Positions 12,001 through 24,000 of a stretch of DNA of 33,888 bases are shown here, piece after piece. Within the stretch, counting starts at the first letter, position 1; every line of letters starts with the position of its first letter. The position numbers are program-made. The stretch comes from Fimbriimonadales bacterium. GTDB lineage: Bacteria > Armatimonadota > Fimbriimonadia > Fimbriimonadales > JABRVX01. Location of the stretch: NCBI GenBank assembly GCA_045862955.1, contig BTVI01000034.1:1-33888 (forward strand). The letters are read 5' to 3'.

Positions 12001-15000
12001 CAGGTGTTCACGCCCGTTTACATGATGACGAAGGGAGGACCACTCCAGACGACCGATGTAGTGGGCTACCACATCTACAACCAGGCATGGCGGCAATTCG
12101 AAATGGGGATGGCGAGCGCTCAGTCCTACATCCTCTTCGCACTCGTACTGGGCATCACGCTGCTGCAATTCAAGTTCCTGAGTAAGCGGCTCCAGGGGTT
12201 CAGCATCGAATGAGAGCGATGATCAGCTACGTTATCCTGATCCTCTTGGCGGTGGCACTGCTCGCACCGTTCGCGTGGATGGTAGTAGCATCGCTCCATC
12301 CATCCAAGGCAGCGCTGCCCTCGCCGGCCAATCTGATGCCTCCGGACGGCAAGTGGCACTTCGAGAACTACCTCAAAGTACTGACGATGCCGGACATCCC
12401 CTTCTGGCGTTTTCTGGCGAACACCTCGTTCGTTACCGTGGTAGTAGTCATCGGCCAGCTCTTCGTCAGCTCGCTCGCGGCCTATGGCTTCTCGCGCATG
12501 CACTTCTGGGGGCGGGACCTGCTCTTCTTTCTGTTCATCGCGACCATGATGATCCCCGGACAAGTGACCATGATCCCGGTGTTCATCCTCGTCCGAAACT
12601 TCGGCTGGCTGGACACCTATTGGGCACTCATCGTTCCGGGTTTGTCTAGTGCATTCGCGATCTTTCTGCTACGCCAGTTCTTTCTCGGCATACCGAAGGA
12701 ACTGAGCGAAGCCGCCCGCTTGGATGGCTGCGGAGATTTCGGCATCTACTGGCGAGTGGCGCTGCCACTCACCAAGCCCGCACTGGCGACCCTCGCGGCT
12801 TTCAGCTTCGTGGCAACATGGACCGACTTCTTCTGGCCCCTGCTGGTAACCAGCTCCATGGAGATGCGCACGCTCGAGGTGGGCCTGTCGGTGTTCAAAG
12901 ACTCGTTCGGCGGTACGAACTGGCCCCTGCAGATGACAGCTGCGGTGATCGTACTGATACCCGTGCTGATCGTGTTCCTGTTCACACAGCGGTTCTTCAC
13001 CCGCGGCATCGCGCTGACGGGAATGAAGTAGCCTCTAGTGTCCCGGCGGCGGAGTCTCTAGCAGGCCCTTCAGTGTCATCAGGCCGATCATCAATATGAT
13101 CAGCATGCCAGCTACGATCACCCATTGCCTTCGCGCCGGGTGACGCGACTCCGAGCGGTCCAACCATGGTAGCAGGAACATGCCGACCGTGACCAAACCA
13201 GGCACTATCACGGTTGCCACCACTTCCCAACCAGACGGCATGATCTTCAGCAGCTCGTACAAACCGAGGAAGTACCACTCGGGCCGAGGCGAGAAGTCCG
13301 TGCCGGTCGGGTCGGCAATGGCTTCTAAGCCAGGCGGCAGCGCCAGGGCCAGCGCGATGACCGCTCCGACGCCGAACAGGAGCACCACGGCGTCTTTGAA
13401 TAGCTGCGTGGGATAGAAAGCCACGGGCTTGCCTTTCTGCGGCATGACGGGACCAGCGATGTGATGCCGACGCACCAGGTACAGGTGCAGGGCCACGAGG
13501 AAGACCAGCGCTGCCGGCAGCAGCATGATGTGGATCGCGTAGAAACGTGTCAGCGTCAGTGCACCGACTTCCGGACCACCGCGAATGAGATGTAGTAGCG
13601 ACTCTCCGATGAACGGAACAGTGGCCGCAATCCTGGTACCCACGACCGTGGCCCAGTACGCCTTTTGGTCCCAAGGCAGCAGATAGCCGGTGAACGAGAA
13701 TCCGAGGATCACGTTGAAGATAATCACGCCTACTACCCATGTTAGCTCGCGCGGCTTCTTGTACGATCCCCAGAAGAACACACGCAGGGTGTGCAGCACG
13801 GTTACGATCACGATCGCCGTCGAACCCCACACGTGCAGTCCCCGCACGAACGACCCGAAGGTGACGTTCTCTGTTATGTGCTTGACGCTCTGATGAGCGT
13901 GGTCCGGACTCGGGGAGTAGAACATCGCGAGTGCTACACCTGTTACGAACTGGAAAATCAACAGGGTCAGCAGCAGGTTGCCCAGCGTCTGCCACCATCC
14001 GACTCCGGGCGGCATGGGTTCGTCCAGGTTCTTCCGCACGAAGCCCCACCAGCCCAAGCGGAGGTCCAGCCAGTCCTTGAGGCCAGGCCGAGCTACGCGA
14101 AGCTCGGCTTCCGGTGTTAGATCCTCGGTGCGTGTTTCGACCGGTCGTTCCGGCGTCAAAGTTTTCATGCTACGCCTCCCTATACACCCAGACTCGTCCG
14201 CCCTCCACTTTCACTCTTGCTCGCTCGAGCGGCTTGGGGGGTGGACCGGATACCACGTTGCCGGATGCGTCGAACACCCCGCCATGGCACGGGCAAAGGA
14301 AACGACTCTTCTCGGGCTGATACCTGACACGGCAGCCGAGATGTGTGCAGGCCGGGTCCAACGCAATCACCCCGTCCTCATTCCGCCGCAGGTACAGGGT
14401 GTACTTGCGGTCGGCCAGCATGAACCCGTCCTGAACGCGAACGCTGAACGTGACTTCCTTCATCTCGCCCGATGGTAGGTCGGCATCGTTGGCGATGGGA
14501 ATCCACTTCCCGCTACGTCGTTGGCGAAGGGGAGATGCCACGAAGCCTAGAACCGGGCCGAAGACGGCGAGTAGTAGTGCCCCATTGATGAGGCCCACTG
14601 CCCAACCCAGCAGCTTCCGCCGCTCGGGCTGTTCTACCTGTTGGCCTTCTCCGTTCTTGCTAAGGTCGGCTGCGCACATAGTTCTGTCCTCTCAGTATCA
14701 CGGGTAGTATCGTAGGCGTACTTTGGCCTTCGTGCCAGGCTCCAGCGTTCTCATCACGCCTTCGGCAATTCGAAGCGACTTGTGATGTCTGCCGGGTGAG
14801 GGTTCGCGAAGGAATGCCAGATCGCCGGATGCGGCCACGTTCTCAGTCAACCGAGTCAGTGCAATCATCAACGGCACGATCCAAGCGTGCATGAATCGTG
14901 TGTAGGGGGCGGTCAACACCAGCAAGGAAACCGAAGCCAGGTGATACAGATACACCGTCATCACCCAGTCGGCGATTCCAGCTCGCTTGATGACGACTGT

Positions 15001-21000: not shown

Positions 21001-24000
21001 GCGCAAGGTAAGCAAATAGCGGTGGCATGATGAACCCGCCGAGGGCCGCGAGCGCCCCGACCAACCCGACCACGGCACCGACGTCAAGCGGATAGTACTC
21101 CGGGATGTACTTTATCGTGGACGCCTTGCCAATCCCTTGGGCGATGCCGATCACCAGCACCATCGCTGCGAACGGATAGAGTCCGAGGGGGAGGAACAGC
21201 ACCGCCGATGCTAGCAGGCACGACGTGAACACCACATAGGTCACCCTGCGAGGCCCGAAGCGGTCGGAGAGGTAGCCGCCGAACGGCCGCAGTAGGCTGG
21301 ACGCCAGAATGAACGGCGTGGTGAGCAGCGCTGCGGTCGAAAGGGGCAGCCCATACACGTCCACGTAGTACTTGGGCAGCCACACCGACATCGCGACATA
21401 CGCGCCGAACACGACCGTGTAATAGAGGCTAAAACGCCAGACTCGCATCTCGCGCAACGGTCGCAGCATGTCGCCGAGTGGCCGATTCGCCGAGGGACGT
21501 CTATCCGGGCGAGGCGCCAGCCACCACATGAGCGTAGCCATGATGGCGATGAGGACGCTGTAGAGGAACGGGATAAATCGCCACCCACCCGGAATCAGTC
21601 CGCCCAGTAGCGGCACCGGGACGAGCGCCATCAGGCCCGGACCAATGAACTTAGTGATAGAGGCTCCCACGTTGCCCGCGCCGAACAGACCCATCGCAAA
21701 TCCCTGCTTTTCTTTCGGGAACCATGCGGCACACCACGCAGAGCCGACGGCGAAGCTGTTCCCCGCGATACCCACGAGGAAGGCCCCAAGAAGCAGCTCC
21801 GGGTATGTATTGGCCTTGCCGACCACGAACGAGGCAATCCCCGCGAACAGGAACGTGCCGAGGAACACGACCTTGCCCCCGAGCCGGTCGGAGAGGACGC
21901 CGAGCGCGAGCCGCCACACCGCGCCATTGAGGATAGCCACCGCAGTTAGCCACGCCAGTTGCTCGTCGGATAGCCCCAGCTCCTTTCGGATGGGCACGCC
22001 CAACACGCCGAACATCGTCCAGGCACCGAAGAGCAGGGTGAAACCCGAGAAGGAAAGCCACAACACACGGTTCCGCCGGCGGACGACTTCGGGTGAGTCC
22101 GGCGCGGACGGCCGGCTGGCGAGGGTCAGCTGATCACGGGATAGATTCGACTCAGGCATGAACCCATTCTCCGCCCGAATTGGGGACCAGACCTATGACG
22201 GCGGTCATATCGGCCCCACAGTCTGCTAGCAGGGCTTTTCGGCCCCTCGTCTGGTGTAGAACCAGTAGTTCAGGAGCAGGTTCGCTGCGTAGAAGGCCGC
22301 AGCTCCGAGGAAGAACGCCTGCGCGGAACCGGTTCGCGCGATGATCCAGCCGAACAGGACCGAGAAAGCGAACGGCCCGTAAGCCGCCACCGCGGATGTC
22401 CAACCGATGACGCCGCCGGCTTGCCGAGGCGGAAAGATCATCGGCATCTGCTTGAACGTGGACGCGTTGCCCACCCCGCTAAAGAAAAACAGCCCCAGCA
22501 TCAGCCAGAGGAACTTCGGCCAGTTCTCCAGGGAAGTAGGGGCAGTATAAGGACTGACCGCCAACGCACACACGAGCAGCCCGACGGCGCTGAACATGGT
22601 GACCCTCGCACCACCCAATCGGTCGCTCACGGGCCCGAAGAGGGCGCGCACCAGAGCCCCGACCAAGGGACCGAGGAATGCATACTTCAGAGGATCGGGA
22701 CCTCCCGGAAAGCCACCGTAGAGCTTCTTGATAAGCAGCGGGAAGGACGCCGCGTACCCGCTGAACGACCCGAAGGTCATGATGTAGAGCGACGTCATGA
22801 TCCACGTGTGCTTATCGCGAAAGATATCGAGTTGCTCGCGGAAGGACGCCCTGACCGGAACCCGTCGCAGTCCGAACCACGCCGCGATGGAGCACACCAC
22901 GATGAACGGAATCCATACGAAGGCCGCGTTCTGAAGCCAGATCTGTGACTCTTGGCCTTTGGCGGAGAAAGTCTGCGAAGACCCGACGAGACCGACGCCG
23001 ATGACCGCAGGGATGACGAACTGTGCGAGGCTAACGCCGAAATTGCCGATACCTGCCTGAATGCCGAGCGCCGTGCCCTGAAGTCGCTTGGGGAAGAACA
23101 ACGAGGTGCTGGGCATGAACGAGCTGAAGTTGCCGCCCCCCAGCCCCGCGAGGATACCGAGCAGCATGAAAGTGCCGTAGCTGGTGTCGGGGTTCATCAC
23201 CGCGAGCCCCCAGCCTATCGCGGGAATCAACAGCAGGAGCGTGGACACCGTGATGGTGTTGCGGGTCCCGAAGATGGGGATCAGGAACGTGTGCACGATC
23301 CGCAGCGTTCCGCCCGCAAGCCCGGGCATCGCGTTCAGCCAGAAGAGCTGCTGCGTGTCGAACCGATAACCGATCCCGGTCAGTTTCACCACGATGGCGC
23401 TGACCATGAACCACGTGGAGAACGAGAAGATCAGGGAGGCGGTGGTGATCCAAAGCGTGCGCCAGGCAAGACGGCTGCCGCCGGACTCCCAGCAAGCGGC
23501 ATCTTCCGGGTTCCAGGGGGTTGTACCTGTGGCGGTCCGAGGCTCTGCGACTATGGATTGTTGCGACATGGCGACTCCTTCGTGGCACCAGCATCGGCGA
23601 TGGGTGGGGATGATGGGTATGATACTCGTCATATCGGGGGAGGAATTGTCCCCGCCGCGCCGTCTGGCGGGCTATGATCGGGGTCATGTCTGGCGGTTAT
23701 GCGATTGAAGGAGAATCAGTTCATGCCTGGCGGCGACGAACTAGCATCTAGCGGGAGAAACATCGCTGAGCGGTCACCACTGACCGACCGCTTTGGGCGA
23801 GTGCACTCCTATCTGCGCATCTCCGTCACGGACCGGTGCAACTTCCGCTGCGTCTACTGCATGCCGCCTGAAGGTATCGAGTGGCGTTGTCGCGAGGAAC
23901 TCCTGACGTTCGAAGAGATCGTCCGCCTGGCTCGTGTCTTTGTCCGCCTGGGCGTGGACAAGGTACGCCTCACCGGCGGCGAGCCGACGGTGAGGCGCGG

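Follow-up and report, generated by a model that had tools for sequence, protein, structure and literature searches.

The coupling of a Q-cycle to cytoplasmic nitrate reduction has been proposed for Streptomyces coelicolor Nar1 together with the bcc-aa3 supercomplex, where electrons would pass from the Q-cycle to cytochrome c, on to haems bD and bP of the NarI-type subunit and finally to nitrate in the cytoplasm, giving 4 H+ instead of 2 (Falke et al. 2021, PMC7931247). In that study, Nar1 is a canonical NarGHI that borrows the aerobic supercomplex, and the proposal of a doubled charge per nitrate rests on dependence and on co-purification in spores. The operon analysed here, found in a window of 33,888 nucleotides of a Fimbriimonadales bacterium (contig BTVI01000034.1), may follow the same mechanism, but its molybdenum enzyme is of a different clade, it has a dedicated Rieske protein and cytochrome b, and its cytochrome c is fused to the membrane anchor. 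Our literature searches, like those of the earlier note, found no published description of this architecture, whereas the mechanism itself had already been put forward for Streptomyces.

Other described systems share parts of the layout. The NarCGHI enzyme of Thermus thermophilus is likewise a cytoplasmic nitrate reductase with a NarI bound to a periplasmic cytochrome c and with narK and a Crp-family regulator nearby, but there the cytochrome, NarC, is a protein of its own with two haems and is thought to act as an outward branch in place of complex III (PMC7694296), and the operon is a canonical NarG/H/J/I without Rieske or cytochrome b genes. In Haloferax mediterranei a low-potential Rieske protein and a cytochrome b share their operon with a type II molybdenum nitrate reductase (PMC3509893), but pNarG is Tat-exported and lies outside, where electrons do not have to be returned; there is no NarI-type anchor, and identity to the present proteins is just 30% for the molybdenum subunit and 29% for cytochrome b. 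Escherichia coli NarGHI (1q16) has a cytoplasmic Asp-ligated molybdenum enzyme, a five-helix haem b anchor and NarK neighbours as here, and its NarI oxidises quinol directly. The anchor domains of EMO, EtfD and HdrE resemble the present one in their conserved His but link quinone to the chemistry of ETF or heterodisulfide, and none of those described in the reports has an N-terminal cytochrome c or serves a molybdenum enzyme (PMC13083937; bioRxiv 10.64898/2026.08.18.745454).

Gene order and the molybdenum subunit

The operon occupies the minus strand and encodes a catalytic Mo-bis-MGD subunit of 812 aa (16521-18959), a 4x[4Fe-4S] subunit of 235 aa with 16 Cys (15812 to ~16519), an anchor composed of a signal peptide, a class I cytochrome c and a NarI-like haem b domain (14698-15831), a Tat-type Rieske protein with an RRK motif (14170-14679) and a PEWY cytochrome b (13035-14168), all where the earlier note had placed them. 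The same strand carries a small protein of the carboxymuconolactone decarboxylase (CMD)/AhpD family (19076-19402), which often adjoins the operon, a Crp/Fnr-family regulator gene (20028 to ~20696) and two narK genes, one for a NarK-family nitrate/nitrite transporter (20834-22159; best family TIGR00886, E 7.5e-64, under the curated cut-off) and one for a NarK/NarU-type nitrate/nitrite transporter (22226-23569; TIGR00886, E 2.7e-90, 303 bits against a cut-off of 311.7). On the plus strand, moaA, moeA and a moaE-moeB-rhodanese fusion for molybdenum cofactor synthesis lie at 23699-27896, and a conserved neighbour of the operon at 19478-20065 is, as we take it from sequence motifs, a probable MobA-like molybdenum cofactor guanylyltransferase.

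Our analysis confirms the operon and its conservation. Its five-gene order is kept in 30 of the 33 loci whose downstream flank reaches 4.5 kb or more, the exceptions (L036, L047 and L054) having the enzyme gene without the other four after it, and NarK lies inside the locus in 12 of the 19 that extend 9 kb or more on each side, which bears out the order and the narK neighbourhood claimed before. Among 401 Armatimonadota genomes sampled, the molybdenum enzyme was found in 20, the anchor in 19 and the cytochrome b orthologue (defined by at least 66% identity, the next best match having 54%) in 21, and all 19 anchor-bearing genomes carry both of the others. A locus with a 62% identical enzyme (L074) has NarK, molybdenum, Fe-S and anchor genes without adjacent Rieske and cytochrome b genes.

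The best PDB matches of the molybdenum subunit are, as reported earlier, PcrA structures (5e7o, E 3.5e-114; 4ydd, E 4.6e-114). The ligand Asp161 is aligned, YDFNGD falling on YDWYGD of PcrA and YDWYCD of NarG, and the motif AYD[FY]NGD is present in 112 of 120 homologues. The NCTGAC motif of FS0 also aligns with PcrAB, but here the first FS0 ligand is Asp and not His, Trp461 is replaced by His, the beta subunit is short and NrfC-like, and both Tat signal and chlorite dismutase are missing. Members of the type II DMSO reductase family carry an N-terminal FS0 motif H-x3-C-x3-C...C, also seen in our reference sequences; the motif of this subunit is a variant, D27-x3-C31-x3-C35...C66, with three Cys kept and Asp as the first ligand in 107/107 homologues. 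The aromatic gate of PcrA consists of Phe164, Tyr165 and Trp461, and these positions are Ala, Tyr and His in this enzyme, His429 standing at that of Trp461. The residue pair after GQ is HH (107 homologues) or HN (5), compared with EK in NarG and WK in PcrA, and thus the active site by itself is no proof of nitrate. Against E. coli NarGHI, the subunit has 812 rather than 1247 aa with 26% local identity, and a NarH-type subunit, NarJ and NarI His66 have no counterpart; the NarG model TIGR01580 gives 260 bits with a cut-off of 1084. Kuenenia NXR (7b04) ranks far under PcrA as a PDB match (E 3.6e-34). Identity to pNarG, ClrA and NarG is ~30% or less, and the enzyme is a separate clade in a quick tree that has long branches and no NxrA. 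It is assigned to the type II (Asp-ligated) DMSO reductase family as a clade of its own, and the label 'Pcr/pNar-like', which the earlier note had used for the family, was dropped on account of these identities, the clade and the missing Trp461. Clade members are named 'perchlorate reductase' or 'selenocysteine-containing dehydrogenase' in databases.

Orientation, operator and substrate

The Tat motif is found in 0 of the 107 homologues with an intact N-terminus, compared with 112 of 118 in the sister family, and in none of 37 stop-to-stop frames of the molybdenum subunit; the absence reported earlier therefore stands, but not its denominator of 120. TatC and a cytochrome c assembly protein are encoded in the genome. 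The Fe-S subunit is NrfC/TtrB/ArrB-like rather than NarH (83 bits with the NarH model, cut-off 524) and has no export signal, the only Tat match, seen twice, being upstream of the start. In 26 of 54 frames (20 of 45 distinct ones) it is continuous with the cytochrome c anchor, and each of the 16 distinct fusions analysed has a single hydrophobic segment between the Fe-S part and haem c; the loop after TM1 has 9 K/R against 1 D/E. The Tat control and the Fe-S::TM::cytochrome c fusions lend new support to the orientation claimed before, and from sequence alone the catalytic subunit sits on a NarI-family anchor and almost certainly faces the cytoplasm. Export of a pNar-like enzyme by an unrecognised route, supplied with electrons by cytochrome c on that side of the membrane, the arrangement proposed for the haloarchaeal system, would agree with the Tat-exported sister family and with the known pairing of Rieske/cytochrome b and pNar (PMC3509893), but the fusions put the Fe-S domain one membrane segment away from haem c, the Tat signal is missing from the molybdenum subunit and, bar the match mentioned, from the Fe-S subunit, and NarK would be superfluous, making this reading extremely improbable.

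A palindromic operator, ATGAY-N4-RTCAT, precedes the molybdenum enzyme gene in 30 of 37 loci, compared with 5 of 370 control windows. The window holds 4 putative copies against 0.08 expected (12 genome-wide), located upstream of the enzyme gene (19034-19047), upstream of the narK at 20834-22159 (22195-22208) and in the divergent narK/moaA region (23619-23632 and 23674-23687). This one operator stands before moaA, each narK gene and the enzyme gene and, far from the operon, before nrfHA, a position that recurs in 6/6 NrfA-bearing genomes of the order. The Crp/Fnr regulator, with 2 Cys and without the FNR cysteine cluster, has the recognition helix ETAIR and likely binds this operator.

The operator common to narK, Moco and nrfHA genes, together with a genome that lacks NarG, Cld and an assimilatory nitrite reductase, points strongly to nitrate, very probably used in the reducing direction, and upholds the substrate suggested before. 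In this genome no NarG, NirK, Cld or NIR_SIR was found while the controls matched; for chlorite dismutase (PF06778) the result was 0/1 in a genome 97.55% complete, with the control matched in 7/14, and a NarJ/TorD chaperone (PF02613) was not found. NarG and NirK were not found in the 19 module-carrying genomes sampled, where NrfA occurs in just 11 and a NarK2-type query matched in 13; the count for NirK was 0 of 18 relatives, leaving no Cu-type periplasmic sink.

With the same wiring, the enzyme might act on (per)chlorate, selenate or another substrate, or be a broad-range reductase, given that PcrA is the best PDB match, that the best plasmid match is a chlorite-dismutase-linked enzyme (32% identical), that the sister family is uncharacterised with no NarK in the loci examined, and that the HH/HN pair is unique. 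We consider this improbable, since chlorite dismutase is missing from the genome, His replaces PcrA Trp461, NarK-like transporter genes adjoin the enzyme even in the 62%-identity clade, and narK and nrfHA have this operator too. Less probable still is the reverse reaction, nitrite being oxidised in the cytoplasm with electrons leaving through the b haems and cytochrome c to the caa3 oxidase that is present, and Rieske/cytochrome b serving reverse electron flow. The topology is that of Nitrobacter NXR (PMC7694296), and an Armatimonadetes member from an anammox reactor has been described as a nitrite oxidiser on the strength of 'nxrAB' (PMC7814187), but the tags of those genes (NPRO_14140 and NPRO_14160) are not adjacent, the present enzyme is co-regulated with nitrite-reducing nrfHA, its Rieske protein is predicted to be of low potential and a motif scan found no RuBisCO motif.

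Haem ligands of the anchor

The class I cytochrome c domain of the anchor (ligands C37, C40, H41 and M74) holds the sole c haem of the operon. By hydropathy, six segments follow the signal, in agreement with the earlier count, but NarI homology and the model suggest five transmembrane helices and one interfacial helix rather than six transmembrane helices. Four His were said to be kept, but in our larger set only three are invariant, H191 (54/54), H297 (53/53) and H315 (53/53), whereas H270 is found in just 35/53 and the position of NarI His66 is Leu in 54/54; a four-His di-haem of the NarI type was dropped. D205 is invariant as well.

In an hhalign comparison (96%), H297 and H315 match NarI H187 and H205; they are 18 residues apart, which in the published text is also the spacing of H233-H251 in the EMO/EtfD/HdrE domains, and the best structural match is EtfD (Z 12.2, rmsd 4.5 Å, 230 aligned), with NarI at Z 10.6. 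Judged by these ligands, the haem b domain is of the three-His EMO/HdrE/EtfD subtype of the NarI family, characterised by a bP pair and a single bD ligand, for which a distal haem is not assured. EtfD shares these three His but is without a distal haem, and the EMO haems titrate at -80 and -220 mV (PMC13083937; bioRxiv 10.64898/2026.08.18.745454). The anchor could thus be without a distal haem or have low-potential haems, and at EMO-like potentials entry from a c-type cytochrome would be steeply uphill, against the membrane potential.

The probable Rieske/cytochrome b partner and the proposed route of electrons

A Tat-type Rieske protein with both boxes is encoded directly upstream of cytochrome b (33/33 for each motif), and H112, H126, H213, H228 and PEWY of cytochrome b are invariant (33/33). 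Box II, CPCHGGVF, has Gly and Phe at the two potential-setting positions and predicts a low-potential, menaquinol-type protein. No second cytochrome b gene of this kind was found in the genome, which has an alternative complex III beside the caa3 oxidase. Complex prediction of the anchor with cytochrome b and Rieske gave 0.51 (best control 0.00), with contacts agreeing to at least 68% and partner pLDDT of at least 72. Of the solved pairs 116 of 157 attained this mark, compared with 2 of 215 mismatched ones, neither of which scored above 0.60. The result is rated weak, and similarity to solved bcc complexes may account for it. The fused domain of the anchor is the sole candidate for a high-potential-chain c-type acceptor bound to the Rieske/cytochrome b complex.

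In light of these data, we propose a respiratory nitrate reductase that would be induced anaerobically and face the cytoplasm, with NarK bringing nitrate in and nitrite out. The low-potential Rieske/cytochrome b would oxidise menaquinol by a Q-cycle and reduce the anchor's cytochrome c domain on the outer face, in place of cytochrome c1, and electrons would run inward from the distal to the proximal b haem, the four [4Fe-4S] clusters, FS0 and molybdenum. Nitrate reduction would use cytoplasmic protons, the yield being ~4 charges per 2 electrons versus 2, and nitrite would go to ammonium where nrfHA is present. The energy available is 1.01 eV, against 0.60-0.80 eV for 4 charges (potentials from PMC7931247). 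The step from Rieske through cytochrome c to the b haems is somewhat favoured by the evidence; the return of electrons from cytochrome c, which the earlier note had read from the layout, is the most likely reading and stands at about even chances, and the same balance holds for a Q-cycle-fed, inward-facing enzyme with its own Rieske/cytochrome b complex as a whole.

The anchor could instead oxidise menaquinol directly at its b haem(s), like NarI, with 2 charges per 2 electrons, in which case cytochrome c and Rieske/cytochrome b would serve caa3 or other acceptors in the periplasm as a side branch, the role suggested for Thermus NarC (PMC7694296). The three-His EMO/EtfD-type domain belongs to a family that exchanges electrons with quinone, L074 has the core without adjacent Rieske/cytochrome b, some anchor homologues are without the haem c domain (P0136, P0140, P0147 and P0165), and the genome encodes an octahaem Hao-like protein besides the caa3 oxidase, which could take electrons from cytochrome c. 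This arrangement is possible though rather unlikely, as it gives no account of a Rieske/cytochrome b orthologue kept almost only with the enzyme (21 versus 20 of 401 genomes) and placed behind an anaerobic-type operator, although an alternative complex III is already present beside caa3; NirK was not found in the 19 module genomes, and NrfA is served by a quinol dehydrogenase of its own, NrfH.

If the proposed return of electrons is true, the wiring would conserve ~2x the energy of an ordinary nitrate reductase, and since all parts are packed into five adjacent genes (~6 kb), the idea is open to test by expression and single deletions. The operon marks an unstudied molybdenum-enzyme clade in uncultured Armatimonadota, and the 19 sampled carriers without NarG suggest that probable nitrate-to-nitrite or nitrate-to-ammonium respiration would be overlooked in genome surveys.

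We extend the proposal, as a less likely reading, to a hard-wired 'complex III-nitrate reductase' supercomplex, acting as a cytochrome c:nitrate oxidoreductase and equivalent, for nitrate, to a cytochrome c oxidase that does not pump. In it, a stacked twin haem of the EMO type, Asp205 being its outer ligand, would return electrons from the periplasmic cytochrome c to the cytoplasm. Its ancestor might have been a Tat-exported, NrfD-anchored enzyme in which the signal was lost, Asp took the place of Cys as first FS0 ligand and the orientation became inward. Nitrate respiration of this kind would be invisible to narG/napA surveys, and the anchor would be a second setting for testing the newly reported twin haem. 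H191 is followed 14 residues later by D205, and SaEMO has its distal twin-haem ligand position at an equal offset (H87/A101), as compared through the published text rather than by direct alignment. The presumed equivalent of the Ca-binding Glu, anchor position 279, is Glu in just 12/53.

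Gene content and the catalytic subunit

The gene content proposed in the earlier note was confirmed. The minus strand of the window encodes a pair of NarK-family transporters, a Crp/Fnr regulator, a CMD protein and a five-gene core, and the plus strand the Moco genes. The core comprises a Mo enzyme of 812 aa (16521-18959), an Fe-S subunit with 16 Cys (15812-16519), an anchor in which an exported cytochrome c domain is fused to a NarI-family haem b membrane domain (14698-15831), a Rieske protein (14170-14679) and a cytochrome b with the PEWY motif (13035-14168). The gene order, previously described as kept in 10 of 10 loci, was found in 30 of the 33 loci having at least 4.5 kb of downstream sequence and is broken in L036, L047 and L054; the set comprised 43 loci (L020-L061 and L064), with L060 left out at less than 60% identity.

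The enzyme was detected in 20 of 401 sampled genomes of the phylum, the anchor in 19 of them and the cytochrome b orthologue in 21 (identity of at least 66%, the runner-up being at 54%); these counts include related, non-independent genomes. All 19 anchor-bearing genomes carry both the enzyme and the cytochrome b orthologue, and the locus is damaged or incomplete in the two surplus cytochrome b genomes. In L078 (G345:C31 33-1976) a frameshifted Fe-S gene is followed, after about 280 bases, by cytochrome b, with anchor and Rieske genes missing, and in L077 (G177:C1 8788-10539) Rieske and cytochrome b are preceded by only the C-terminal end of the anchor; either decay or assembly error would account for the gene loss. 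A locus scan for distant anchors (alignment A4) yielded three loci, of which L074 alone is from the distant clade. It holds Rrf2, NarK, Mo enzyme, Fe-S subunit and anchor genes but, within the locus, no adjacent Rieske or cytochrome b gene, which weakens a strict link between Rieske/cytochrome b and the enzyme.

The CMD/AhpD-family gene (19076-19402) has an operator in common with the operon in several loci, another member lies downstream of a plasmid-borne Mo operon linked to chlorite dismutase (L072 11966-12277), and the protein may aid maturation where NarJ/TorD is not found. At 26184-27896 (+), MoaE, MoeB and rhodanese are fused in one protein, with a long linker rich in Pro and Ser.

PcrA is indeed the best solved relative of the enzyme, with Asp161 aligned to the PcrA Mo ligand, but identification as PcrA did not hold, the first FS0 ligand being Asp in 107/107 sequences and the position of PcrA Trp461 being occupied by His. 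Membership of pNarG, ClrA or NarG was rejected (30, 25 and 26% identity, respectively, and a separate, well-supported group in the tree). The tree is a quick version of 35 selected rows with long branches, an unreliable root and no PcrA or NxrA sequence, and the sole point it supports is that the family forms one group (SH-aLRT 100). By identity (43-47%), the nearest relatives form a large, uncharacterised Tat/NrfD family (P0273-P0392) from Chloroflexota, Actinomycetota, Binatia, Myxococcales and others, having a Tat signal, CSPNC and YVGQYK; its sister relation is based on 47% identity, the two families not being joined in the tree. In the two loci scanned (L060 9842-14276; L063 9839-14258), the genes after the sister-family enzyme encode an NrfC-like subunit and NrfD. 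We infer that the enzyme was derived by loss of the signal and a change of anchor, although the tree gives no direction. The only other homologous Mo enzyme in the genome is a Tat-type Phs-like protein. Near the operon in L033 (16245-22188), a second, NasC-like Mo enzyme is accompanied by a 4Fe-4S protein, a Rieske protein, a NarI-like membrane protein and NarK, and a similar cassette is present in L032, L038, L056, L057 and L061.

Membrane sidedness and the anchor haems

The claim that none of 120 homologues carries a Tat motif stands for the 107 that are intact, the remaining 13 being N-terminally truncated. The identical test was positive in 112 of 118 members of the sister family, no motif was found further upstream in 37 stop-to-stop frames, and TatC is encoded in the genome. 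Natural fusions provide the strongest new evidence: the Fe-S subunit reads through into the anchor in 26 of the 54 frames, or 20 of 45 when only distinct ones are counted, and exactly one hydrophobic segment precedes CxxCH in all 16 distinct fusions caught by the motif filter. Cytochromes c receive their haem on the outer side of the membrane, and a cytochrome c assembly protein is encoded in the genome. Since haem c lies outside and a single hydrophobic segment intervenes, the Fe-S domain and the enzyme should face inward, and on these sequences we consider a cytoplasm-facing enzyme highly probable.

In hhalign, E. coli NarI matches the anchor at 96%, and NarI H187 and H205 pair with anchor H297 and H315. 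The predicted model of the anchor is confident (pLDDT 92.7, pTM 0.80) and superposes on EtfD with Z 12.2 (rmsd 4.5, 230 aligned) and on NarI with Z 10.6 (rmsd 5.5, 185 aligned), scores that are middling for helical proteins; Foldseek returned nothing at E 0.001 or better with this model, the weak top rows being EtfD and NarI. Four conserved His had been reported, of which three are invariant; H270 is present in 35 of 53 sequences, and the position of NarI His66 is always Leu. Three His are the mark of the EMO/HdrE subtype, and in SaEMO the proximal haem is accompanied by a stacked twin haem at the distal site, the outer ligand position of which is 14 residues past the first His (bioRxiv 10.64898/2026.08.18.745454). 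The invariant D205 of the anchor sits at the same offset, 14 after H191. EtfD keeps three His and has no distal haem (PMC13083937; bioRxiv 10.64898/2026.08.18.745454), and EMO haems are low-potential (bioRxiv 10.64898/2026.08.18.745454); a haem wire across the membrane through the anchor is for these reasons plausible but not assured, and is the weakest step of the proposal.

Among the 53 sequences, His270 (with V/L/M/W/I at 279; 35 sequences) and Glu279 (with W/L/I at 270; 12 sequences) never occur together, a pattern that could reflect two variants of the site for the distal haem. Distant anchors have tandem haem c domains, five or three (P0125, P0126), or none (P0136, P0140, P0147, P0165).

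Rieske/cytochrome b and a proposed electron return

No Rieske/cytochrome b other than the operon's was found in the genome, which also has an alternative complex III beside a caa3 oxidase in one cluster (G000:C5 13918-26217) for aerobic use. An NrfCD-like module with multihaem cytochromes (G000:C20 52942-60831), an octahaem Hao-like protein (G000:C11 61620-62942) and a cydA-like gene (G000:C21 1399-2859) were also observed. All Rieske/cytochrome b motifs are intact in 33/33 loci, and the Rieske protein has Gly and Phe at the potential-setting positions, predicting a low potential by a published criterion (PMC3509893). Because Rieske/cytochrome b needs a c-type acceptor and the anchor's haem c is the only one of the operon, it is the candidate acceptor. 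Complex prediction of the anchor with cytochrome b and Rieske scored 0.51 against 0.00 for the best control, with predicted contacts agreeing by at least 68% and partner pLDDT of at least 72; it is rated weak and is possibly biased by solved bcc complexes. The mark used is reached by 116/157 solved and 2/215 mismatched pairs, both mismatches at 0.60 or below. The available energy, 1.01 eV per two electrons, is enough for four charges at 150-200 mV, and a Q-cycle with electron return to the enzyme has, in our judgement, a roughly even chance of being right.

The component parts have precedents. A Q-cycle-fed mechanism has already been hypothesised for Streptomyces Nar1 (PMC7931247), cytochrome c is attached to NarI as an outward branch in Thermus and for the reverse reaction in Nitrobacter (PMC7694296), and Rieske/cytochrome b accompanies an outward-facing Nar in haloarchaea (PMC3509893). 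Searches, with most subscription journals outside their scope, found no published description of the operon, clade or fusion; no account of the operon appears in the consulted passages of PMC5877337 or PMC9671151, and PMC5600118 yielded nothing relevant. The architecture is real and undescribed, assembled from known parts. In another genome of the phylum (L097, G298:C237 13000-1900, minus strand), a canonical narGHJI with HGVNC and no evident Tat signal lies directly downstream of Rieske, cytochrome b and hexahaem and monohaem cytochromes c. This is a second, independent bc-nNar operon and suggests that coupling of Rieske/cytochrome b to nitrate reductase arose more than once. In L098, Rieske/cytochrome b is divergent from narG.

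Operator and probable substrate

The palindrome ATGAY-N4-RTCAT, first spotted in the output of an FNR-box comparison, is present at four sites in the window, where 0.08 would be expected. One copy is upstream of the enzyme, one upstream of a narK gene, and two are in the interval that separates the second narK from moaA. In 30/37 loci a copy falls no more than 200 bases upstream of the enzyme, versus 5/370 control windows; the seven loci without one have record titles outside Fimbriimonadales or no title. No enrichment was seen for the canonical FNR box (2/37 upstream regions versus 10/185 controls). Eight of the 12 sites in the genome are outside the window, including those upstream of nrfHA, a haemerythrin/RIC-like gene and feoB, and the operator precedes nrfHA in all six NrfA-bearing genomes of the order and none of five others. 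We infer that the Crp protein binds this operator.

Searches of the genome (97.55% complete; controls positive) found no NarG, NirK, chlorite dismutase or assimilatory nitrite reductase. NarK-like genes adjoin the enzyme in distant clades too, and NrfA is present in 11 of the 19 module genomes. The operator common to narK and nrfHA, the missing alternatives and the NarK neighbours point to dissimilatory nitrate reduction, which would proceed to ammonium where NrfA is present, and the enzyme is, from its genomic setting, likely a nitrate reductase.

Mutual exclusion of NarG and the module was not significant (0/19 versus 17/401 genomes, about 0.8 overlaps expected by chance). NosZ and cytochrome cd1 matched in 0/19 genomes, a result unusable as absence, the controls having matched nowhere. 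Sequencing runs gave sparse contigs at depth 2-5 from libraries possibly holding DNA and say nothing on expression.

Elsewhere in the window, a Cys-rich protein of 451 aa, which matches nothing in Pfam or NCBIfam, is encoded beside an N6/N4 DNA methyltransferase (28477-30748, plus strand), possibly as a restriction-modification pair, and a methylmalonyl-CoA mutase large subunit is followed by a B12-binding-MeaB fusion (30758-33726, minus strand).
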